Source: Patellaria atrata CBS 101060
Taxonomy: Eukaryota
DNA: 64,000 bases
Direction of reading: 5' to 3'
Assembly: GCA_010093705.1 (NCBI GenBank)
Contig: MU006101.1
Coordinates: 347,614 to 411,613, forward strand
The notes beneath the pieces were generated by a model. That model was not told where the DNA came from. It was given only the letters and a program-made list of their open reading frames with translations, and did no database searches. Of this stretch, positions 5,676-38,555 are shown piece after piece (position 1 is the first letter of the stretch; the number at the start of each line of letters is the position of its first letter). A program made the position numbers and the translations under genes.

Positions 5676-5821
5676 ATCTAAATCCACTCGAGATTTTGCG
5701 GTGGTGATATGTCGTATCGCCGTTAGGATCGTTGCGAGTTTGTGTGTTTGAGTGAGGATTGAGCTTTTACGTTGATTTATTTTCGAAACTGTGGGTTTGG
5801 TGATCACAGTTCGAGTCCTCT

Positions 5822-12149: not shown

Positions 12150-15100
12150 TCAAAAGTCCATCTTAAGAGCAATAGTCGGCGCTTCCCTCTCCTCCTCACT
12201 CTTCTTCCTCCCCAGTCCACCAGCCGCACTCTTCACCAGTTCCTCCAACACTTTCCTCTCGCCCTCTTCCATTGCTCCCACCGCAGCCCTGAACACAACT
12301 TGGTTTGCAGCCGCAATTTCCAGCAACCTCGCACCAGTTTCTCGTCTCGTACTCTCGTCATTCTTCGCCCTCACCACTAGGGTCGGCACGACAACTCCCA
12401 TCGCGGCCTGCACCTGTTTCAGCTCTCTCAGAGACGAGACCCACGCCACGAGCGCTTGGACGATGATGGTCCGAGCATCTTCCAGACCTTCTACCTCGGA
12501 AGGGCACGCGAGAAAGCCGAGTAGATGAGGCAGTAAGTGAGCTACAATAGCGTGTTCTGTAGCATTCCTCTTGGGAAGAAGCAGCAGAGAGCGTGCACAA
12601 CTAGCCGCAACCTTACTAGTCATCCTACTATCAAGAGAATCTGCGAGCTCGGCGATGAATCGAGCTATCAGAGGGTCCGCGGCATCAAAAGCTGAGGAGG
12701 CTGAGCTCAGGAGCACCGTCGAGGCGAGGAGAGTATTTTTCTCGCAGGGGAGCGCGGCGTCGGAATCGCGCTTCTGGGCGTGCTTGAGGATAGCATGAAA
12801 GCGAGCAAGTGTAGTGTGAAGCTGTTGGCTTGTTTCGGAGCGATTGGAGCCGTGCGAAAGCGAGGCAATGAAGCGCCGAAGAATGGGGAGGGAGAGGGGG
12901 ATAACGGTTTCTTGACATGAGGCCGTGGCCAGAATTGAGGCAAAGATGTTGAGGATGCAGGCGTGGAGATCTGTCTTGATAATTGAAGGGAAGATGGCTG
13001 CAGCGTCTACGAGCGAAGAGACGGCGAGGGTGAGAAGGTTGACTGATTCATCAGTTAGGAATTTGGGTGCTTGATTTCTGTTCTCGCTCAAGTTAGGTAC
13101 CAGGCCGCTTAGGACCAGCACCATGATTCTAGTAAGCTCGAAAAGCTGTTCGATATCTTCTGTGAGTTGCTCTTCACCGGGAGGTCCATGGGAGGTCGTC
13201 CTGGCCGATGGATGACCCAGACACAGGTTCCGAGCAATCTCAACAATGACTGCCTGTATTGGAGGACCTTCTGTTAATACAAGGCGGTCTAACATATCTG
13301 TCGTCTCGGTAAATACAACTTCCTGGTATATCGCATGGCCAGATACAGACGGACGGAGGATCTTCTTGAGCGCCTGGAGTATGGAAAGTGTTTGGTCTTT
13401 CGAAGCTTGAGAATCGCCGGTCCTGCTGACAAGTGCCTCAAAGGCAAGCCCGAAGAGCACAAAAAAGAAAGCCACCGGTTCGTCACGATAATTGATATCG
13501 CTGGACTTCACAGGCACTCCAGGAGTTGTTCCGTCAGTCTTCCCGTCAAGGGCGTCAAATACGAATTCACTATCCTCCTCGATAAGACTTGCGATAGCAT
13601 CAACAAGATTTAACCATGAATCTTGATAGAACTAGATCATGTCAGCGATATTTTCTATGAGAAACTGTGAGGTATACATACCTTTAGCAAAGTTTCCCGG
13701 TTCAAAGCAGCATAGATCATATCCAAACTACCTGAGAGCGAAGCCGCACCAGCTGCTGTCGAGATATCCGGTTCGAATCGAAGACGAGCGAATTCTCTGA
13801 GCGATGCAAGCCATAGAGGAGTTAACCTCGCAATATGGGGTTTAACAACCTCGACAAGATATTTCTGTTCCGCGCTCGCGATCTGAAGTTCAGCCCACGC
13901 GGAGAAGACAGCCATTTTCACCATGACTTGTGCATTGGAGCTCAGCCCTTGTAGATCACCAATTGCTGCTGTTTCAGATTCACCTATAACTGAGGTCATT
14001 AAATTGTTCCTTGAACAAATCAAATATCAGCACTTACTGGAAAAATTGTCTAGAGCGGAAACCAAGAGTTTTAATATCCTGCCCATGCGGTCTACATCCG
14101 TCACGATTCCGGTAGCAATAAAAGTCGCGCAGACGTTGACCGCTTCAGCTGCTAACTCCGGTGAAGAGTCAGCGGCAAATGCAGGAGTTAGTGCTGAACC
14201 GATCTGAGCTTGATACTGTTCAAGTAGAGGAGCTTCTGCAAAGTCTGGGTCAGGGGTCTTTCCGAAGATCTTTTCAAAGCATCAGCATAATATACATTAC
14301 AAATCGAGACGAAAACAGACCTTAAGAACCTGATCAATAATACGCAACCCTCTGATCCGTAGTGACGCCACGCCAGCAGTCGATGCAGAGAATGCAATCC
14401 GAACAACGTCAGCGATACGTTGCTGGAGAGCAAATTCAGCAGCCGAATCCTCATGAGAGGCAGCATCTCTTCCGCACGTAGCAATGAGTTCGCTAAGGCA
14501 ATCCATTGCAAAAGTCCTGACCTGCCACTTTAACAGTTCCTGGGTCGAGTTTGCCCCACCAGCATTATCCTCTTGTCCAGTCCCAGAAGCAGCAGCGAAA
14601 CCAGCTGCCTCCTCATCTTGCAGCTCGGGAAAACCAGAAGCTTTGCTCGTAGATTCTGATTGAACCTTCTCGGGGGTTTTCATGACTTTGGTTAAAACAA
14701 CGTGACATCGCTGGACCCATTCCGCTGTATTTGATAGTCCAGTCTGTTGTAGCCAATTTCGAACAATACTCCGAACAACGTCATGTTCGGGAACAGAATT
14801 GAGAGCCTGCCATAACTGTTCTTCTAAGCCGGGTTCCGCTGTACTAATGACATCTTCCGCATTCCTCCGCATCAAGTTATGTAGACCATCCAGAGCCATA
14901 TCCCGGATTTGTAAAGATGGCGATTGTAAGTCATGTTGTAACTTCCGTACATACTCGGAAAACTCCATATGTCCAGATGCATAAAGGTACATATGCTCTT
15001 GACATCTTGCAGTCTCTAATAGAACAAGTATATCACCTTCAGTTTGGAACTGACTAATTAAGATCATGATCATATCCCGTGCTTTTGCTTGGTCTTGTAG

Positions 15101-18100
15101 GTCTGGTCCTAAGACGTTGATGATGCTGTCGATGCACCTCACAATCACAGCTTCCGAAGGGAGGTCAAATTCGAGATCCGAAGACCCCAGAGAGTCCGTC
15201 TCGGTGTTGTGGCTATCATTGACATATAGCTGAGCGAGCATCCCTAGGGTGCTGGTTACATATCCGGAGAAAGACAAGCACGCGGAGTCTGCCACGCGTG
15301 AAAGGCTGTCTAGAGCCCAAAAGTGTACAGTCGGGTGTGGATCGCTGCATAGAGACATGATTATACTTAGGATATTCTTCAGATGGAAACCAGCAGCCAT
15401 ACCACCCAATTGGGAGTGGATGCATCCGAGAGCAAGAGCGCAGCCCGCTCGAGCGTTAGGGTCTCGATTTGCAATTATATGATCAACAATATGGTTGACT
15501 TCATTAGTAGTGAAAGCGTTGCCAGAACAGCTGCAAATCCTCCCTAGTGCTTCAGCAGCGATATTACGCACATATGGGTCTGGGTTAATCACAAAACCCT
15601 AAGCATATATTAGTTAAACCTCATGTTCGAACACGAGAGTTACATACGTGGAGCAATTCTTGCATTGCCTTCTCAACAGCAAGACCTCGTATCTCTCCAG
15701 AAGCAGATTTGGTTTCTTTTACAGTGACTTTTAGAGCTGATAGTAGTGCAAGAGATATGTTGACTATCATTGCAGCTTTTCTTGCAGGATCTCGTTGAAG
15801 ACTAGACGCTGATAGAAAGGATGACAATTGCTCCAAAATACTCTCTTGTACTTTTGGGGTCTGAACAGGTAAAGCAACCGCAAAAAGCTGTATTGCTGAA
15901 TTCACAACTTCAGTAGATGGTGGATCTGGTTGGTCAAATGAATCGAGAGCGGTGTCGATATACAGCGAGATGGAATCGTGCTCTTGCCCTCCGCATATTG
16001 GGGATAGAAGCTAATTTGAGGTCAGTTTCGCTTAAAAATATATACAGGTCCTTCTCATAACCTACAGTTTGGTCAACTTGGGCCTCCGGTCCGCCCCTTG
16101 TCACCCAGTGATGATCGGTTTTCGAGTCCTGCTCTCCAGGTAACGGTTTTATATCGAACCCTCGTATTAGACCTGTTACGCCAAAGCCAGAATTATCTCC
16201 AATCTCCCAGATGCTTTCAAAAGTCGCAGAGGAGGTGGCAATTGATGTGCTAAGGGAACTAGGGGCATAGTTATCAGGACTGGCAAATGAAGAGAGCGCG
16301 AGGGGCAATAAGTTAGTCTGCAACAAGGTCTCACTGCTGCCAGCAGGGTTTAGGTTAATAAGTTTAGTGTAGCATTGCAATACCCTTCGACGAACCATCA
16401 AGTCGAAGTCATGGAGCTGTAATGAAGGAGAAAGGCGCTGAGATATGTCATCTGTTGTCTTTCTACTTGGTAAGCCATTAAGAAACAGGCTCGTATTTTG
16501 TAACATAGCCGCAAGCCTCTTCGTTACGTCTGTAGTTAGAAGTCGACTGTTGAATTCAAGAAACGCGAGGATGGAACCTAACGCGCACTCACGCACATGA
16601 GCTAGAAAGCTGAGCTCGAGGACATTCCTTTGAACCATATGATCTTTGTTCAAGGGCTTAGGTAGAGCATTTTTCCAAAGAAGGAGGAGCTGTGATAAAT
16701 GAATCTTGACAAAACTTGGACCCAAGGACATTAATCCGCCAATAAGCACCCAGGCTACCTGTATCTGAGTACTGGAGATTCTCAAATCTGAAGAACTACT
16801 CGATTTCAGGAGACTGGTAGCTTGCGATAGCACACGTGAGTTCACATCAACGGAACCATACAGTGGTTGAGCAGATGTTGTACTCAGCACAGCAGAAAGT
16901 CCATTTGCCAGGCCTACGCATCGTCGTGGGGATTTTCGTGTACCAGACAACAGACCAAGCTCACGAGTGACGCTATTCATACATATTGTGAGTACTGGTA
17001 GTAACTGCTGGGGACAAGCAAGGACAAATGCTCGGAGACATGAAGATGCGTAGACCTGAACGGTATAACTTGGATGCTGAAGGACTTGAAGAAGACCCTC
17101 GCGGCAGGACTCGGAGAAAGTGCTAAGAGCAGAGCCTAAAGACTTGGCTAGAGACGTAAGAGCACTCAGAGCTCCTGTCAATGTTTGCTTGCTTGGTTCA
17201 GGCCTTTCTTTCAGAGCTTGAGGATAGTCTTTCAGTATGTCATTAACGAGAAATTTAGCAGCATCGAGCTGGCCTGATTCACCCAGTAACTGGCGTCCAA
17301 TAACATCCTCTAGAACAATACGCACGTACTTGCGTGTGGTTAATTGGCGGTAACGGTTTTGAGTGATACTCGGAAAGCTGAGAAGATTATTGAAGAGATG
17401 CCGCGTGATCTCTCCGTAATTTCTCTGAACGACCGATTCACCTAGCCCTCTCAAGCCTTTAATAAGACAGACAATTATCGCCGCTCTAGCCCGGTTGCTG
17501 GTCGCAGGTTTACAGTATTGTGTAGATAGCTCCCTTAGGAGCCCACTTATACCGAATGTTAACTGTGTAGCTGGTTTTGAGGGGGCTGGAGATCCAGGGC
17601 GCTCAGCTATTTCATCTTCACCCTCAGCAATTGTTGATCTCCTCGTAGGTTTCTTCGGCTTTCGAACTACCGGAAGAGGATCTTGTCGTGGACTATCTGA
17701 GTAGCTCTTCACTAAAATAGCAGCAAGAACTGATGCGGCAGCATGTCTGACTTTCGGAGAACCACTATCCATTGCTTTCCAAATAGCACTTTGTAACTTT
17801 TCGTAGTCATTAGAGTTATCAAAAAAAGGAGTTTCTTGTACAAACTGTTCCAGACACCAGCAGGCGTTCGCTTGGACGAGAAGTCCCTTTCCAGAGGATG
17901 CAGCCGCCCGACATTGCTTCCAGATATCTCTTGAAACGGGTTCATCCATTGACCCTCGAACACCTTTGACAATCCTTCCTAGAGTCCGGAAGACGGAACT
18001 CTTGAATCCAGTGAGAGTTTGCGAAATCTTCAATTGACGTAATATGAGTGCAGATACCAGACTTGACTGGCCTATTGCACTATCGCCAGCAGCTTCAAAT

Positions 18101-18501
18101 ATGCTTCCCAATGCATGGATAGCTGCATGTTTTGCTTTTACATCTTTATCCCCCTTTCCAGTATTCAAGATAGCAATCAACTCATTTATAGATTCAAATA
18201 GCAATTTCCTGTCCCCTTTGGTGAATATACCAGCGAAGGATCTTCCTATACTGTTTCGTATAGCTTTATTGGGGGCGGGAGAGGAAAGCGTTATGAGCTT
18301 GAACAATTCCTTCTTGATATAGACCTGATGCGAAGAAGCACCGTCTGCGTCCAGCGCAGCTACATGACGAGCGAGATTAGACGAGAATGTTAAGACGTAC
18401 AGCTCCTGCTGTTCTGAGGGGAGAGCGTGTAATTTAGGTATATCGAGTTCGGGGTTCGACGAAGTACCATTAGTGGGTGCAGTCTGCTCAAGAGTTGACA
18501 T
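12150..18501 (-). CDS. LAA1: Large HEAT-repeat AP-1 accessory protein (Laa1/Sip1/HEATR5 family), multi-exon
   Basis: ~2000 aa across ORFs 15934..18510, 15621..15905, 14297..15592, 13655..14023, 12150..13517; motifs RDPNARAGCALALGCIHSQLGGMAAGFHL, DPHPTVHFWAL and C-terminal PTIALKMDF. Confidence 0.88.
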
Positions 18502-18735
18502 CTTTAACAAGGAAATTCGTAACTCATAAAAGCATTAGGAGAAACAATCGAGGTTGTGTAGCCGCAATTTCTGTATCTTGAGCATGAAATACTTTGTTAT
18601 CCTCACGAGGAGGAATCGTCGAGGGGTTGAGATGCGGTGATTCTGTGAAGCTTCCGCATCCCTGGTCCAAGCTTGACCGCTCGGAGGTGTTTTCTACACC
18701 ACAGCATCTCACCATTTCACTCACCCCTGGCCTCA

Positions 18736-19673
18736 ATGTCCCTTTCAACTCGACAGTCTCTCCTTTTATGGAGGGTGTCGAATGAATACATATGTTTGAG
18801 ATGCCAGAGTCGGCGGCTCTCAACCTCAGACTTCCTAGGATCAGGTCACAGCAGATGGTCCACTATCAAACATGACAAGGGGAAGAATGATGCACGAAAG
18901 AACAAGGAACGCTCCGTTTTTTCCAATGAGATAGCTACAGCAGCAAAATGCAAGTGCGCTTTAAAGATACATAGTAACTTTATGCTAATCTTAAGTTTGC
19001 AGTATTCGGCGCCAATCCCGATCAAAATCCTCGTTTAGCTTTAATAATCACGAATGCGAAGAAAGCTGGTTTCCCTAAGGCTAGCATCGAAGCAGCAATA
19101 GCCAGGGGACAAGGCGTTTCCGCATCGGGTGCCGCATTGGAGGCTGTGACTGTCGAAGCAATACTCCCCCCATCCGTTGCGGTCATCATTGACTGCCAGA
19201 CCGATAATAAGCTACGCACTCTCGCCGATGTTAAGTTTGCGGTCAAGAAGTCGGGCGGGACTGTCACGCCCATTGAATACATGTTCGAGAAGAAGGGTAG
19301 AATAGTCTTCAAGCAGAAAGATGGTATTGGTGTAGACGAAATACTAGAGCCGGCATCAGAAGCCGGAGCCGTGGATGTCGCAGAGGGTGAACAGGGAAAT
19401 GTGGTCGTGTACACGGAAGTCAATGACACGAAATCCACAGCGCTAGGACTATCTAAAGACCTAGACTTAGAGGTCGAGAGTTCAGAGATAATATACGATG
19501 TAAACGAAGACACCAAGGTCGAACTCGAAGATGAAGAATCTATAAAGCCGCTCCACGAGTTCATCGACAAGTTAGAGGGTATACACGGCTTTTCAGGGCT
19601 GTATATAAATGCCGCTCAGGGATCCTTAGACGATGCAGCTTGGGCTGAACTAAAGAGTAGAGTCTCCGCATAG
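18736..19673 (+). CDS. TACO1: Mitochondrial YebC/TACO1-family translation factor
   Basis: SGHSRWSTIKHDK, NPRL..I..AKKAGFPKASIEAAI, DCQTDNKLRT, YMFEKKGRIVF; GC-AG intron 18950-19002. Confidence 0.9.
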
Positions 19674-19900
19674 CGTACATAATCTGTAAAGTAATGTACA
19701 TTAGATCCCGTAAAAGCCATACAGACTTGTACAACAATTCCCTACGCCCGCAATGCTGCTCTTTTGACCGCTTACAGTAGTCTTCAATCTTTATTGATAC
19801 CACCATCCATATGACCATACATCCATATTTACAATCATTCCTCATTGAATTCAGTGACGCTCGATTCGATTCCATGACACCCACTCTTCTCCCCTCCACC

Positions 19901-20235
19901 TTACTCACCATCAACCCTCCCTGTTATCTCCATCTGCCTCCTCTGTTCCTCCTCCTTCCTTAACCGTGCATCCCTCAGCGCCAATCTCCTCGCTTTCAGT
20001 CTCTTCAACTCTGCCTCTATATCCTCCCTTTCCGTTGGAATCTTGTTAACCTGATTCGGATTGGGCCAGAAATCGGGGACTGAAAAGCGCTGATCGAGGT
20101 TGGTACCGAAGTAGTACATGATGCCGATGGGGAAGAGGATGTACATCCCGAACTACAGGAGACTCGGTCAATGGGGAATCTGAAAGAGGGGGTCAGGTAA
20201 CTTACTTTGAACACTTCGAGGTTGGGACCGCCCAT
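19901..20235 (-). CDS. PET100: Cytochrome c oxidase assembly factor Pet100
   Basis: MGGPNLEVFK|FGMYILFPIGIMYYFGTNL..F.VPDFWP; intron 20205-20153. Confidence 0.92.
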
Positions 20236-21091
20236 TTTCGCAAAACTATTCCGATGCGTGGTAGGGAGTTGTGGGGAAGATATCAGTGTTATGAGGATGG
20301 TATTAACTTCGTCTATAATCAACTCGTACCAATTGGTTAAGATCCTGCTGATAGAGGTTCTTTGTGTGCTTAATCTTCAGACTTGCGGTGGTGCGTAAAT
20401 CGCGAGAATCACTAAATGCGCCACACCTGTAGCCACAGATACCTTAGTCATACCTTCCAGGATGCATCAGCCACCAGCCTAAAGTTCTTCCCATCTGTAC
20501 TTTAACCTGACGACTTCAGCAACAGATCCATACAAGGAAGTAATTATTTTGCCAAAATAAATCATTTTCTCCCTCTTCGGCAAATCTAAGAGTATGAAAT
20601 GAGGTCAGTAATTGCTGCCAATATTAGTTCAACGAAGCGGAGTCCACAGTAACAGCAGAATAGGAGGATACCTTAGAGATATAAAGTATGGATCTCTTAA
20701 TTAAGTGTCACATCGGGGCACCGTAGGGTCAGGGGTATGTAAAGAGCTATGTAAATAACAAAGGGAAAAGGGGAAAAGTAAATCATTAGACGTTAGAATG
20801 CAAGCGTAATATTCTTACGATTTCAGTGCTAGAAATTTGAATGGTATGGTTCAGTAGGTGTAGAGAAGAGCTTAGTATTGAGAAAGTTGGAAACAAAGAA
20901 AGCAGCTATGGAGGAGTGGTTGAAGTTGTTCAATAATAGGAGGAGTAATTTGCAAAAAGGGAGAGACAAAAAGCGTAAGAATGCAATCTTTTTTAGACAC
21001 AAATATCCCCCAGCAGTCACACCACCACGTGATATCCCCAGTCCCGCACTCACCACCTTACATACAATCGAGGGAGAAAATAACCCCAATT

Positions 21092-21280
21092 AACCGAATG
21101 GCAGAGCGGTCAGGCAGTCTGGCTACGATCCCCTGAAACGTCTTCAGTTCGAATCTCTCCGGGCGGGTTTATCGGTAAACCTCAGGTCAAAGGAGCAGCG
21201 GCAGTAAAAACCCGTCCGGGGGGTTCAAGAAGGCCTACGGGCCTAATTGTTTTGTCTTTTTAACTCTTTTTTTTCGGTTA
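21092..21280 (+). ncRNA. Putative RNA polymerase III non-coding RNA with tRNA-like internal promoter (family unassigned)
   Basis: A box TGGCAGAGCGG 21099-21109; B box GTTCGAATC 21147-21155; ~19-bp stem 21151-21170/21208-21226; AGGCC-TACG-GGCCT hairpin 21231-21244; T5 21257-21261 and T8 21267-21274; no cloverleaf. Confidence 0.7.
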
Positions 21281-21845
21281 CTTGCTTCTTTTTTGAGTTC
21301 CTATCAGAGAGTCTGAGATCTGAAGTTCGAGTCACGCCTTAATTTGTTTTATATGTTATTTACATTCTTTTGGAAGTTTCAAATAAGAAGAAATTTAGGA
21401 CTATTATGGACGGATCTATTTTCATGCTAATTGTTATATTATGACTGAGTACGGTGTGAATTGAGGAGGAAAATTTCAATTACTGTATGCGATCACTTAT
21501 GAGAATGCTCCCGACTGAAATAAGTATGGAACGACAGCACCTTATACTTTAGTTCTAACGCTTAGACATCCCTATTTACTTTCTGATTCACACACCATAG
21601 CTAACTGCAGTTGTGGCAACCGGTTGAGTCCAGACCTATGAGTAAACGGTTGATGTCCCGAGCGCGTCTATCACCACCCTCGTCACTGCTGGCATTTTCT
21701 TTGTGGTCTTTACGCTTGCTAGACAAGCTCTTAGATTCAAATGTAACCCGGCTACATGGTATATAACCCATATAGCTGTGAGGACGTTCGCCCTCAAGGC
21801 TCCCCGGTCCGCGAATAGAGTTCACCCACAGCATCCCCCTATTTC

Positions 21846-22607
21846 CTATACGACAGGACCGCCCCACTCGCTTTGTCCCGGCGCAATCATCCTTCTTTTA
21901 TTCGACGCATCCGGATGACAGAGGCCTGCATTACTTGTACCGGCACTGTTCGACTCCTGTCACTCAGTCAATATATCACTCTTCGCCATTGTCAGGGATG
22001 ACAATTTGATCAAGACCGCACGTGCGAAGAGCAAAATATCAGAGGCACTTACAGCATGAGTCACAGCCTGCTCGACCCTCTTCCGCTTCCTCCACTCCGT
22101 CCTCTGCATCTCCCTCTCCCCCAGCTGCACAGCCTCAATACACTGCGCCAAAAACTCCGCCTCACCCCTCGTCGTCAAAGCCACACTCCTCTTAAAAACG
22201 TCCATCCTCAACTCCTGCCTCAACCTCTTCAAAAACCCCTGCATCTCATAGCTGCGCTTCAGCTGTTCGATGCGCCTAGCCACATCCACGTTCTCGGCGT
22301 CCTGGGAGGTCAAGGGACGACGGCTGAACCAGACCCCTCGGAAGGAGACGTGGTTCTGGATCTCAGGCCTCAGTCTCCGGATGAAATACTGGATCTTGAG
22401 CATTTCATCGACTTCGGCGGTGAGGTATTCCTCGAGGTGGAAGAGGTAGGTGGAGAATTCTGCGACGGTCTGGTTTTCGCCTTGTCTGGCGCGGTCGTAG
22501 GCTATGAATGCGTTCAACTCTAGATGCACCGAAGCTTGCACGGAGGATTGGAAGTCTTCCATGTCTTTGATAGGTGTAGGTTCGCTTTCTCGGGAATATT
22601 TCTTCAT
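21846..22607 (-). CDS. Solitary Ty3/gypsy Gag capsid (C-terminal domain)-like protein; unspliced ORF ends at 21960, possible intron 22052-21957 extends it to 21846
   Basis: ARQGENQTVAEFSTYL..LEEYL (MHR-like) followed by F..RLRPEIQ..V..T...A..VARRIE and a second copy F..RLRQELR..V..TTRGEA..LAQCIE; no pol ORF or LTR seen. Confidence 0.65.
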
Positions 22608-23285
22608 GGGGTCTCTAGTTCCTCGTTCGGGCGGGGGGTTGTTGGACTTTGGAAATCAGATGACTATCTTGGGAAATTATCTTCCTTTTATTCTCGACTC
22701 CTTCTGCACGCATCTTTGGTCGGGTTTCCATCACCGTCACTCTCAAATGGTCGTTGAATATATCACTGTAGATCTAATGTCGCTTTGTGGGTCTTCTGCG
22801 CGTAGTACGCGATCTGGTGGTTGAATACTCGTCATGACTCCTAATGTGACCTTCAAACTTCGGCCAATGGAAAGGATTTTCAGTCCATCCAACCTCATTG
22901 AGTAAGATCTAGAGACTCAACTTCACTTCACCAAACAAGTAACCTACAGTACCAGTTAAATGTTGTTAAGAGTTCCATTTGTTATTCTATGCTATTTCGT
23001 AGAACTTACTTTGACACCCTTCCCCATTCCGCATAACAACGCTTGGTGAACAACAACTAGGATACTACTACTTCCGCTACATTACCAAGCTCGATTATCT
23101 CTACTGTCGAGTTCATCCCACTAGCGTGCACAGATTATTCAAGAAAGCCAAAGCGATATGTTGAGAAAGTCTTTTCAATTCTATATGAAGTTATACAAAA
23201 ACCAGCGTAGTTTTGTGGGGCGCGAGTGATGCTACGATCATACTAGGGTGAACCTGCCAACTAGAGTAAAAGCAATTGTCGACCC

Positions 23286-24669
23286 TCAATCTTTCTTCGA
23301 GAAGTAGTTTGCCAGAGTATTCTTCTGCGGACTCTTCTCTTTCGCCTTCTTCGGGCTCTCCTGTTTCTCAGGTTTCTCACCAACCCTCAACGCACGCATC
23401 AACTCCTCAAACTCCTCAACTGGTACAATCCCACCGCTCGCCTCCTTATGACCCCTTGCGAACGCATCTCCGAGTCGTTCTCGCAGAGTTGGATCTTCTG
23501 CCAAATCCGCAAAACTTTTTAAACTCTCGATGAGATTGACCGGCGGGTCTCTGCTCCGTGCACAACGAGGTATGCGGCACGAGAAGTTGACATAACCGGG
23601 TAGATAGCCCGAATTCGCAACGAGCACAACTTCTAGCTTCTTGGAATTGAGGTGGCCAGCCCATCGAGTGGCAATTACTGGGTGGACCTGAGCGCCGCTG
23701 CTTATACGCAGAACAGCGACTTTGCCGTCGTACGAGAACTTAGGAGGTGTATGCGTACAGCGTTCAGTTTCTGCAAACACTTCGTCGCGCGCTAGGTGTA
23801 ATCTCTTAACTTGTAGTACGTCCTCAGGTTTAGTAGCATCTACGAGAGCATTCCACGCCGAGATGACGTCGTAGGTCGCTGTTCTGCGAGGAGCGTTAAG
23901 TGCAGATACGCAATCATTCAAGGCCTTCTTAGAATACCTCTTGAAAGTATCTGTCATATCTGGGAAGGGTGGAAGCCATTTGATGGTCGTGCCCAGATCA
24001 CCATGCGTACCAATTATACACAGCCAAGCACACTGTTCTTTCACAACCGGATGAAGTTCAGCGCATAACGTATATGTTAGAAGGGATGCCGTTGCGACGG
24101 GCGGCGAGTGACAAGCGGTGACAAATTGTGCACCATTTGGAAAACTTCCATCTTCCGCATGGTGATGGTCTATAATAAGTGCAGTATGGGGAGAATCGAT
24201 AACAGGAGGACCACTCCGGGATCCTTGATCAAGCACAAACACGTAACTTGGATTGTGAGATGCCATCTTATCGCGTTCGACATCAGTATGAATAGTGTTC
24301 CCTTTGCTTATAAGGTGAACAGCAATGTTGTCGGCAGATGCACCTAGTAATATGAGGGTACGACGAAGGATGCACCCCGATGTAAGTCCATCAGCGTCCT
24401 TGTCCGGAACGATGAGTATTCTATTGTTGGGTTGGGCACTGAGAGCGTCAGTAATAATGCCAATCGATACATTTGCTAGTGATACCAGACCTTTCCCTGA
24501 TGGTTTTACGAGCATTCTGTATCTGCACTTTAGGGGCTGGCCATATGATATTATCATTCTCATCGCGTAGCGAAGTTGTAAGATGATATTCGGGAACCTC
24601 TATTTTCGCCTTTTTCGAAGATGAACGCCCAGTAGAAGGGGCTTCCTTCCTCTTAAGTGTTGAAGCCAT
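23286..24669 (-). CDS. DHH-family phosphoesterase (RecJ-like)
   Basis: Motifs PDKDADG, VLDQG, IIDHH, GTHGD and a DHHA1-like RGHKEASG; exon 1 MASTLKRK... joined by an intron at ~24490-24439. Confidence 0.85.
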
Positions 24670-25761
24670 CCTAAACTTAGATAGTAGTCTTAGATTTTGG
24701 TTGCTAGATCGAGACAGCACTTGAAATAGGTTATTATTGGACACCGGACGAAATAAAGATGCGATAGGAAGTAGCAACGATGTTTTGAAAATGATGACCA
24801 TAACCAATCATTTAGAAAGCATTCCAATCAATGGGCAGTGACTGATCGAACGAGATTAACATCACTTGGGACTATACCGAGCAGAAATGAAGCGACAAAA
24901 GGGACTTCAAACATGTCATGACGTTAGTGGTAAGACCAATTGACTATGAACAGTTTGCAAGTGAAAAAAGATTTAGCTAGAGATGAGATCCCAATTCCAG
25001 CTCGAGCATCACGAAAGTATCAAAATGGTGTCAAAAGGAGCTTTCTGGACCAGATGTCAAGGCAGCACAGTCGCAAGCACTCCGCAGCTGCAGAACTGCG
25101 TGGTTGTCGGGCAAACACGTTCGACGAAATATAATTACCAAGCATTGCCCTTTGGGGAAACCACACTTCAGTCTAACCGAAAAGCCTCTAGTGGGTAATC
25201 CCTTCCATCTCATCACAGAAACTGAACTTGAACCACTTTGTCTAAAGATCTCATGTTACACATGGATGTTCAAGATTTTTGGAGAAGATATCAGAATATT
25301 ATATGAAACTGTTCTATTCCTAATCGTTAAGAAGATGACCAAAAAAATTCACGGCCTTTTTGAAGTTTTTGGTGTATAATATGCCAAGACTCGGACATGC
25401 CTGAGGACTGAACTAACGATAAATGGGCATCTCAGGAGAACGCTCACCCATTACGCCTTTCTAAAATCATAAACGATAAGGGGGACATGTTCTTCGGACT
25501 CCTTCACCACTCATAGGCTTCATCTTACGGCAAGATGGATAGGGATGTCGAGAGAGCATACTTCCACTCACTTCAGCAAGCACTGGGTTCATCGTTGTAT
25601 ATCAATATGGCTTAGAGGTTTAACATTGAAGGTAGGTTTTAAGAGATAATACGTTGCTAGCAATAGAATAGTACTTCATAACCAACGATCCCGCCGCCAT
25701 ATTATTCACCGAGCACACCCATCGAAGATACCTGCGACTGAAACCGAAGCTACCGCTCACC

Positions 25762-26652
25762 TTACACCATTCTCCTCTCCCAATGCCTCACCTGACTCCT
25801 CCTGGAAGGGATCATCGTCCCATTCAATCCACACCCAGCATTCACACAACTAGAAATGGTATGAATATACCTAATCTCCCCGCCCTCGACCCTAAACATA
25901 TGACTATCCGGCATGGGCGTCTGTCCCTGACTCCTATCCAGCCCCGGGAAGCCCAAAAACATAACCACAACCCCCATCGCCTCATCAACGATATACCTCT
26001 TATTCGTGACCGTGATATTCGTCGGGATGCCTAGATTACACGTATTCGTCGTGATGTTCCCCGTGCGGGACGTGTAGGCCCCGCCCTCGAGCCTCGCGCA
26101 CGGCGTCCCGAACGGCACGTCGACCGACGCGTTGTGGAAGCGCTCGAAGTACGCATCCCCGGCATGCTGGATCACCTCCCGCGTGTCCCGCATCCCCTCG
26201 GGGATCGGGTTCCACCGCTCGAACGAGTTCCAGTACAGATACCCCGTCGCGTTGAACAGCCAATCGCCCTGATCACTGACCACGCTCTCGATGGTCGTGA
26301 CAACGCCGTTCGTCAGCAGCATCCGCGTCCCGATGACGTACGGGTGCGGGCTGTTGGCCACGATGAGCTCGGTGAAGGTGCCACAGAGCACTGGGTCGTG
26401 TATGCTGCGCGCGTGGTCGATCTTCATCGGTTGCTGGATGATGCCGTTGGCGATGTTGAGCGCGACTTCGTTCTCACTGTAGCTGATATTGTATGAGAGT
26501 AGCGTGAAGTTCGTGACCAGCCCCGTCGATTGTGTCGTTACATATTGCTCCGTTACGGCCTCCAGCAGCGTGCGGTTGCATTGCGGTTCGCCGGTTTGCG
26601 CGACCGCGGTGGCAGCCATTGCGCCCAGTGCGAGGAGGAGTGAGCGAAGCAT
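25762..26652 (-). CDS. Secreted Cys-containing protein of unknown function (fungal family, two similar halves)
   Basis: Signal peptide MLRSLLLALGAMAATAVA; CNRTLL, YSENE, GDWLFNA, AGDAYF, PCARLEGG; several N-glycosylation sequons; strong GC3 bias. Confidence 0.85.
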   Translation of the reverse strand: MLRSLLLALGAMAATAVAQTGEPQCNRTLLEAVTEQYVTTQSTGLVTNFTLLSYNISYSENEVALNIANGIIQQPMKIDHARSIHDPVLCGTFTELIVANSPHPYVIGTRMLLTNGVVTTIESVVSDQGDWLFNATGYLYWNSFERWNPIPEGMRDTREVIQHAGDAYFERFHNASVDVPFGTPCARLEGGAYTSRTGNITTNTCNLGIPTNITVTNKRYIVDEAMGVVVMFLGFPGLDRSQGQTPMPDSHMFRVEGGEIRYIHTISSCVNAGCGLNGTMIPSRRSQVRHWERRMV

Positions 26653-27479
26653 CTTGATCTCTCCCTCTCTATCCGATCTTCAGGGTCGTGAGGAGGAACA
26701 GCGTGGTCAATTGCAGATATTGACGTTCTCCTGAGCTTCGTTATAACCCTCTCTCTTCCCCCTTTCCCGATGTCAATTATGACGTTTCATCATCGTAAAG
26801 AGGAGAAAATACCATTTAAACCCCCTCAAGAGTCCAAAAAGCATTTCGGCACTTTAGTCCAATCGATACCATGGAGCGATATACTTGTTGCTTGCAACGG
26901 CCACATATTTATATAAAAATCATATCAAGGTGCATGGACCCCTTGTATTCTTTAAGGTACGGAAAGATCTCCACGCTGCGGACGTAGTGTGGGGAACCCA
27001 GCTACCTCATCTACTCAAGTCACCTTTTAACCGGTCTAAGGAATCATCCTACTTGGGAGGATCGAATTTGGAAAGTTTCCTGTCTTGTACTATGTTTTCT
27101 GATATCGCTGCAAATTGCTACATGTTCAGTTTTCGGTGTCAGTTTTGGAGACCGGGGGAACACCCTATCATTTGCTGACTACACATCACGTCTCATGCAG
27201 TTTTAGAGGGATTATAATTTCAATATCTATAACCCCTCGATGGCTTGTATCAAACGAATGGGATATAAGTCGAACCCATTATACTTTAGCCTCCTACGCA
27301 GTCTAACCTAACCGCTCTTTGAAATCGAACATACCTTTTCAATTTCGTGGATGTTCTTCAGTCTCCCCACCACGGAAAGGATATTGAAGATAAAAGAAAT
27401 TTAGCACATTACAAGATGTATATATCTAGATATTTAGAAGCAATGCGCGGCCGGTCTATATCACGCAGGAGTCTTCCAA

Positions 27480-37573: not shown

Positions 37574-38555
37574 ATGGATAGTCGTAAAAGACGACACGAC
37601 GGAACCATGACAGATATTTCGAAGTCTTCCTCTGCCTCACTATTCCTTCCTATGTTCGAAGGATTTCGGGCGGAGTTAGATGAACACCACGACCGTCGAG
37701 AGCGGGTTATCAAAGCCTCTCGAGATATCACAGCGGCGAGCAAGAAGATGTGAGCTTACAATATTTATTTTAAGGCGTGTGTCTGACTTATCATAGCATA
37801 TTTTCTTTACAACGGTATGAGGACCATTGACCATACAACCTGGTACCTCTAACGTTCAATTCAGAATAAAAAAACTGAATGAACCGATTCCAAATTTTGT
37901 CACAAAGGCGAATGCGCAACATTGGGATAACATTGCAAAACAATATAAGACCATTTCTCCCGATCTGCAAGATTTGAATACCCATAGATATGAGCGTAAT
38001 ATCACAGGTGGTAATCAAGAGTTGATGGAGTCTCTAAGCTTTCAACATTACCTCTCAACGCAGACACTCATTTCGTACGATGATGCTTGCGCTAAGGTCT
38101 CGGAACTTAGCGAGAAAGGTAAACCCGTTCAGTTGAGCATTGAAGATTACGTCTTAGGAATATTCGACATGGTAGGAGAACTCATGAGATTCGCCATTAC
38201 TGCTATGGCAACTGGTGGAGAACTACCGGGAGGGAGTTCCACATCTACTGAGAACCGCAAGGTTGCGGATGAGGACACCATGGAAGTAGACTCTGAAGAG
38301 AAGCGATCTCTACCTCCTAGGAATGCTCTTTCAGATATGCGAGAGCTGCGTACGTATCTTGAGTACCTTGAGGTACCCCGAGGAACATACTTCGGTAAAG
38401 ATGTTGACAAGAAGATGGAGGTAATGCGGACCTGTGTTGAGAAGGTTGAAAACGCATTGTATGGGTTAGTTGTTCGTGGTAGCGAACGACCCAAGGGTTG
38501 GATCCCGGAATTCACTGGAAGCAGTAGAGGACCAGAGCCGGTTGAGGCAGTATAG
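37574..38555 (+). CDS. TRAX: Translin-associated factor X (TRAX; C3PO catalytic subunit)
   Basis: ELDEHHDRRERVIKASRDIT, QELMES, DYVLGIFDMVGELMR, KVENALYGLVVRGSE; includes an 18-nt exon 37797-37814. Confidence 0.88.

Follow-up and report, generated by a model that had tools for sequence, protein, structure and literature searches.

The stretch of roughly 170 bases at 21090-21262 of the window (by which we mean the whole stretch of DNA analysed, 64,000 nucleotides in length) carries a tRNA-type pair of promoter boxes ahead of a structured body unrelated to tRNA, and the question it raises is whether this is an RNA gene in its own right or one copy of something that is repeated. The initial annotation had read it as a functional non-coding RNA of ~160-190 nt or, alternatively, as the head of a SINE. 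Its Pol III-type anatomy stands, its uniqueness does not, and the SINE alternative has emerged as the better supported of the two. We accordingly assign the unit, with moderate confidence, to a SINE-like family of Pol III-type repeats that derives from a tRNA and is dispersed in the genome.

A tRNA-type head with internal promoter boxes

Direct reading, folding, and the mapping of contigs delimit on the + strand a unit comprised of a tRNA-derived head, a structured body, and a T-rich end (21090-21262), whose 3' limit is a T5 run and whose 5' limit is approximate, the match of another copy being lost upstream of 21097. The A and B boxes of tRNA-type genes are the internal promoter boxes recognised by TFIIIC. 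In the unit the A box is TGGCAGAGCGG (21099-21109, + strand) and the B box GTTCGAATC (21147-21155, + strand), the latter of which would supply the first bases of the long stem's 5' strand in the RNA; this presence of both internal boxes in a tRNA-related head is a hallmark of the SINE2 class. Taken singly, the A box has 6 matches in the 64-kb window (3.13 expected) and the B box has 12 (5.28 expected). The pairing is more than chance: the A box of the unit is the sole one of the 6 with a B box downstream, and a scripted search of both strands for an A box followed on the same strand by a B box at 20-75 nt recovers this pair alone in the window, against a chance expectation, estimated from the expected box counts, of ~0.004 such pairs per window. 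None of the other box matches inspected in the window, at 5809, 13771, and 43885, belongs to a Pol III unit. A further B-box-like word, GGTTCAAGA, lies inside the unit at 21222. At the 3' end, + strand runs of T4 (21250-21253), T5 (21257-21261), and T8 (21267-21274) form what, to judge from the sequence, is presumed to be the Pol III termination zone.

The head is no longer a tRNA. ARAGORN predicts 0 tRNA genes in the whole window, no tRNA model matches 20900-21500 up to E = 10, and inspection by eye shows that the T-stem and acceptor strands fail to pair, leaving no cloverleaf; the earlier claim that no tRNA is present is therefore upheld. The D-loop region of the head resembles what we take to be the pattern of a class II (Ser/Leu-type) tRNA. 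The individual elements described in the initial annotation, namely the A box, the B box, the hairpins, the stem, the T runs, and a second B box further downstream, are likewise all in place, and, to the extent covered by a comparison of five neighbouring ORFs with Pfam (0/5 matches), its placement of the unit in a gene-free gap is borne out.

Predicted fold of the RNA

For the RNA of the + strand, the predicted folding energy is -62.2 kcal/mol (z = -2.49), a value equalled by 4/200 shuffles, and the fold of the - strand has z = -0.17. The predicted structure displays three elements, all on the + strand. The first is a 5-bp hairpin (CTGAA/TTCAG, 21133-21147), recovered both by reading and by folding, whose 3' arm abuts the B box. 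The second is a long stem-loop (21151-21226), in which 21151-21170 pairs with 21208-21226 via 19 pairs, including 3 G-U pairs, with one bulge and a 37-nt loop; it is present in both the minimum-energy and the centroid folds and is also picked up as an inverted repeat (I3; 12 nt, 92%). The third is a 5-bp hairpin, AGGCC-UACG-GGCCU (21231-21244), with a UACG loop closed by a C-G pair. As the three G-U pairs of the long stem make the fold strand-specific, the boxes, the T runs, and the G-U pairs all indicate the + strand. The proposal of two mutually exclusive folds fared less well: the segments on which it was based, GGTTTA (21166-21171) and TAAACC (21176-21181), are both present, but they offer just a 6-bp alternative that carries no weight. 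Separately, a part of the loop of the long stem (21180-21201) reads CC-UCAGG-UC-AAA-GG-AGCAGC-GG, and resembles the symmetric-loop motifs of SRP helix 8, probably by chance.

Copies of the unit in the same DNA

The evidence that bears most directly on the nature of the unit comes from the contigs of two DNA sequencing runs (X1 and X2) of one sample and one study, which were mapped to 15000-27000; this sample is possibly the very one from which the window derives. These contigs behave as DNA, i.e., they are long, collinear, and without splice joints. Altogether 74 contig pieces map to this interval, and the loose ends and variants considered below were seen among the 16 pieces listed. In both runs, long contigs are interrupted inside the unit, ending at 21176 and restarting at 21193 (12,360 and 2,378 letters in X1; 1,278 and 2,355 letters in X2). 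The summed depth in the bin containing the unit (21015-21415) is 1753 in X1, as against 303-329 in the neighbouring bins, and 2552 in X2, as against 416-479, i.e., ~5.5x the depth of the flanks, where summed depth is not to be equated with copy number. With the same reservation, the excess, if placed entirely on a unit of 165 bases, would roughly amount to ~10 further genome equivalents.

Among the pieces listed, contigs matching parts of the unit continue into unlike sequence before 21097, before 21137, and behind 21222, and a further loose end lies at 21219; at least three variant copies with other flanks are found in the sample. The unit or large parts of it occur in several other contexts of the same sample at >=95% identity, and the flanks of these other copies become unlike on both sides within 30-255 letters. 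Thus, for this one sample and with a copy number that is rough, the unit is present as several dispersed copies with unrelated flanks. The contig breaks, the ~5.5x depth, and the variant copies, together with a partial copy adjacent to the unit, leave the unique novel RNA gene that had originally been envisaged without support.

The variant copies also display differences within the unit. In the copy with a loose end at 21137, the small hairpin is replaced by a pyrimidine-rich stretch. The copy behind 21222 has one G fewer and keeps the 3' hairpin, with a G-C pair changed to U-G at 21233/21242 and a UAAG loop. This change of pairing accounts for two of 4 substitutions in ~30 nt, and a compensatory change of this kind would have a chance of a few per cent by a rough estimate; involving one pair only, it is a weak hint, and it fits a selected RNA as well as it does a SINE.

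The adjacent partial copy (21303-21338, + strand) was detected by local alignment, and through the repeat families D1 and D3, as a shortened version of the head that reaches from its D-loop-like region as far as the B box. It encloses the second B box, GTTCGAGTC (21325-21333, + strand), and is devoid of the A box and of ~16 bases between the boxes. Its local alignment with 21110-21160 scores 27.1, as against 15.0 +/- 3.0 for shuffles, a score matched by 3/1000 shuffles and by 2/992 random pieces of the window. It may represent an older copy that has been truncated at the 5' end or has suffered a deletion, as far as the alignment allows one to say. A further likeness, between 21222-21270 and 21324-21371, is marginal, with 12/300 shuffles being equally good.

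Searches for additional relatives were negative within their respective scopes. With blastn, no second full copy was found in the 64-kb window, and the sole candidate copy within it, an nhmmer match at 37621-37717 (E = 0.4), reads as coding sequence. Scans of metagenome collections with few fungal genomes returned 0 matches to a 20-base word across the B box. A gapped pattern of the head returned 5 loci from the same type of collections, and 0/5 are related to the unit: they comprise a pair of GC-rich, coding-like loci, a single tRNA-type gene, and an AT-rich sequence that was hit twice. A 59-codon open frame that runs across the unit (21084-21260) yielded no candidate when used as a query against a protein collection with few fungi, and a literature search found no description of this repeat family.

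A SINE-like repeat or a family of small-RNA genes

In favour of a SINE are the joining of a tRNA-type head to an unrelated body, the small length of the unit, and a low copy number, with young copies that stand in other flanks. Counted against it are a T-rich 3' end with a terminator of its own and the lack of a duplication in the flanks that goes beyond TTAAC. Specifically, the 3' end consists of the T4, T5, and T8 runs with their presumed terminator rather than of the A-rich or simple-repeat tail of a SINE. TTAAC (21090 and 21260) is the only word common to both flanks, and words of >=5 nt are shared by 233/1000 shuffles.

We propose that such an element would function as follows. The head (~21092-21160) has kept its two internal promoter boxes and lost the ability to fold as a tRNA. 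Pol III would initiate a few bases 5' of 21092, transcribe the + strand, and terminate within the T runs at 21250-21274, and the predicted product would be an RNA of ~165-185 nt with the small hairpin, the 19-bp G-U-bearing stem-loop, and the terminal UACG hairpin. The copies would have spread via an RNA intermediate with the help of the reverse transcriptase of a LINE-like element, and units so short would be expected to escape repeat-induced point mutation. This copy probably has no function for the cell beyond a possible binding of TFIIIC. As a SINE-like repeat it would be of little importance alone, enlarging by one the set of short tRNA-derived families in a genome of fungal type; such short units are of interest chiefly because their size would let them evade repeat-induced point mutation and because they may provide TFIIIC sites near genes.

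The alternative that survives best, though we regard it as unlikely, is that the copies are genuine small-RNA genes transcribed by Pol III, which form a multi-copy family specific to the lineage, with the decayed tRNA serving as a promoter leader or leader gene and the hairpin body being the functional product, e.g., a small-RNA precursor. Such a family would account for a complete promoter, a structured body, and a terminator all lying on one strand with a fold that the G-U pairs render strand-specific, for the T-run terminator being part of the repeated unit, and, as a weak hint, for the preservation of the 3' hairpin in another copy through the G-C to U-G double change. It would also have precedents in the dispersed tRNA-Trp-RUF70 and tRNA-5S genes of Y. 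lipolytica and in the leader of RPR1 (PMC2566860). Against this, a head that cannot fold as a tRNA leaves processing by RNase P and RNase Z with no evident substrate; the small hairpin and the inter-box region are lost in another copy (the one with the loose end at 21137); no conservation was found outside the sample in collections with few fungi; and there is no Rfam match. That the copies are lineage-specific structured Pol III small RNAs, in which a gutted tRNA promoter and a variable inter-box region accompany hairpins under selection, seems to us rather doubtful. Were it true, the family could supply small regulatory RNAs or TFIIIC-bound chromatin elements, and would belong to a Pol III transcriptome that has gone unrecognised in these fungi.

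It is still more improbable that the locus is a dead tRNA relic, or two such relics in tandem, copied by local or segmental duplication of DNA and neither mobile nor transcribed. The decayed cloverleaf, the tandem partial copy at 21303-21338, and a flank word that is no longer than TTAAC, which was not counted as a target-site duplication, are all what a relic would be expected to show. On the other hand, the boxes remain near consensus, with neither the 19-bp stem nor the T runs disrupted; large segmental duplications are made less likely by the flanks of the other copies, which become unlike on either side within 30-255 letters; and the >=95% identity among several copies suggests a recent spread.

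The ends of the unit

The ends of the unit invite comparison with a different class of mobile elements. TAACCGAA (21091-21098) is complementary to TTCGGTTA (21273-21280) over a perfect core of 8 nt. This exact complementarity had been pointed out before, and it extends to an inverted repeat (I2) of 12 nt at 92% identity (21087-21098 with 21273-21284, no strand assigned) that brackets the whole unit along with its T runs. Its 5' arm sits exactly at the position of a tRNA acceptor strand; its 3' partner overlaps the T8 run, continues past it, and would hence be absent from a terminated RNA. The bracketing of the whole unit by this repeat would suit a MITE with terminal inverted repeats that had captured a tRNA fragment by chance, yet we consider this very improbable: there is no direct repeat immediately outside the arms, an inverted repeat of 8-12 nt somewhere within 300 nt is not rare, and the arm is not identical in the other copy observed at the 5' end.

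Comparison with Rfam models

The reported lack of an Rfam match is confirmed, as Rfam 15, with its models of SRP, RNase P/MRP, U6, and 5S RNAs, of snoRNAs, and of the Afu_* families, yields 0 matches at gathering score in the whole window. When 20900-21500 was searched up to E = 10, two chance-level matches were obtained, and the only one of these on the unit is to Bacteria_small_SRP (21148-21232; 15 bits as against a gathering score of 40, E = 4.5). A reduced SRP-like RNA with a loop mimicking helix 8 of SRP RNA can practically be dismissed: although the alignment sets the loop UCAGG and GGAGCAG on the conserved helix-8 motifs, it attains 15 bits instead of 40 at E = 4.5, with many non-standard pairs, one helix missing, and an apical stem reduced to two pairs with a three-base loop, and the unit is multi-copy.

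Neighbouring genes and other irregularities of the contigs

The neighbouring genes are both on the - strand, one for a HEAT-repeat protein (15934-20322; Pfam HEAT, E = 2.2e-07) and one for a DHH-family protein (23286-24563; Pfam, E = 7.8e-09). Neither has a match among PDB sequences at 1e-5 (0 matches), and a simple GT-AG intron test on the neighbouring ORFs allows many possible joins; the pattern of the ORFs is what points to eukaryotic, fungal DNA. At 23518-23631 the contigs of both runs split into short alternative pieces, with a T>G difference at 23548 in X2; this has the look of a polymorphic site or of a small variant bubble within the region of the DHH-family gene. Elsewhere in the mapped interval, contigs match as far as 18137, 25192, and 25347, beyond which up to 255 letters of unlike sequence follow, and these ends may reflect other small repeats, paralogues, or structural variants.

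Comparison with known systems

Several known elements share the plan of a tRNA-type 5' part joined to something else. The T-tailed tRNA-type SINEs of plants have a tRNA-type head and a T-rich 3' end, i.e., the same type of head and of end as the unit described here, although they belong to a different kingdom. Among fungal elements, the comparison with AfuSINE2 of A. fumigatus, drawn by description only, is of particular relevance. The AfuSINE2 elements are 140-493 bp long, have degenerate boxes and a low copy number, and are flanked by target-site duplications of 4-14 bp, with 5/8 shown to be transcribed (Kanhayuwa and Coutts, 2016; PMC5063351). As in our unit, the A and B boxes lie in a tRNA-related 5' portion ahead of an extended tRNA-unrelated region, the head lacks a cloverleaf, the copy number is low, and the size is short. 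One of the families has an extra B' box downstream, for which the counterparts here would be GGTTCAAGA at 21222 and the second B box at 21325. A point of difference is that our unit ends in T runs. The same source lists MgSINE, Foxy, nrs1, and SINE2-1_BG of filamentous ascomycetes, with tRNA-derived heads and from tens to ~160 copies (PMC5063351); these resemble our unit in the head but are mostly longer (472-900 bp).

A second set of parallels is provided by genes in which a 5' tRNA-type promoter drives a downstream promoterless non-tRNA RNA, a configuration that is found in RPR1, tRNA-5S, and tRNA-Trp-RUF70 and that our unit resembles in architecture. SNR52 is a further leader-driven Pol III gene. 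In Y. lipolytica there are 48 tRNA-5S and 13 tRNA-Trp-RUF70 genes, and in yeast RPR1 the first 84 nt are a tRNA-like promoter leader (PMC2566860). RPR1 differs in being single-copy and conserved, whereas the unit here is multi-copy; the RUF70 and tRNA-5S genes are like it in being both multi-copy and dispersed. In Y. lipolytica a functional tRNA serves as the leader and is cleaved away, whereas the head here is not a tRNA. Should the copies of our unit turn out to be expressed and processed RNAs with conserved hairpins, they would constitute a multi-copy Pol III RNA family like RUF70 of Yarrowia.
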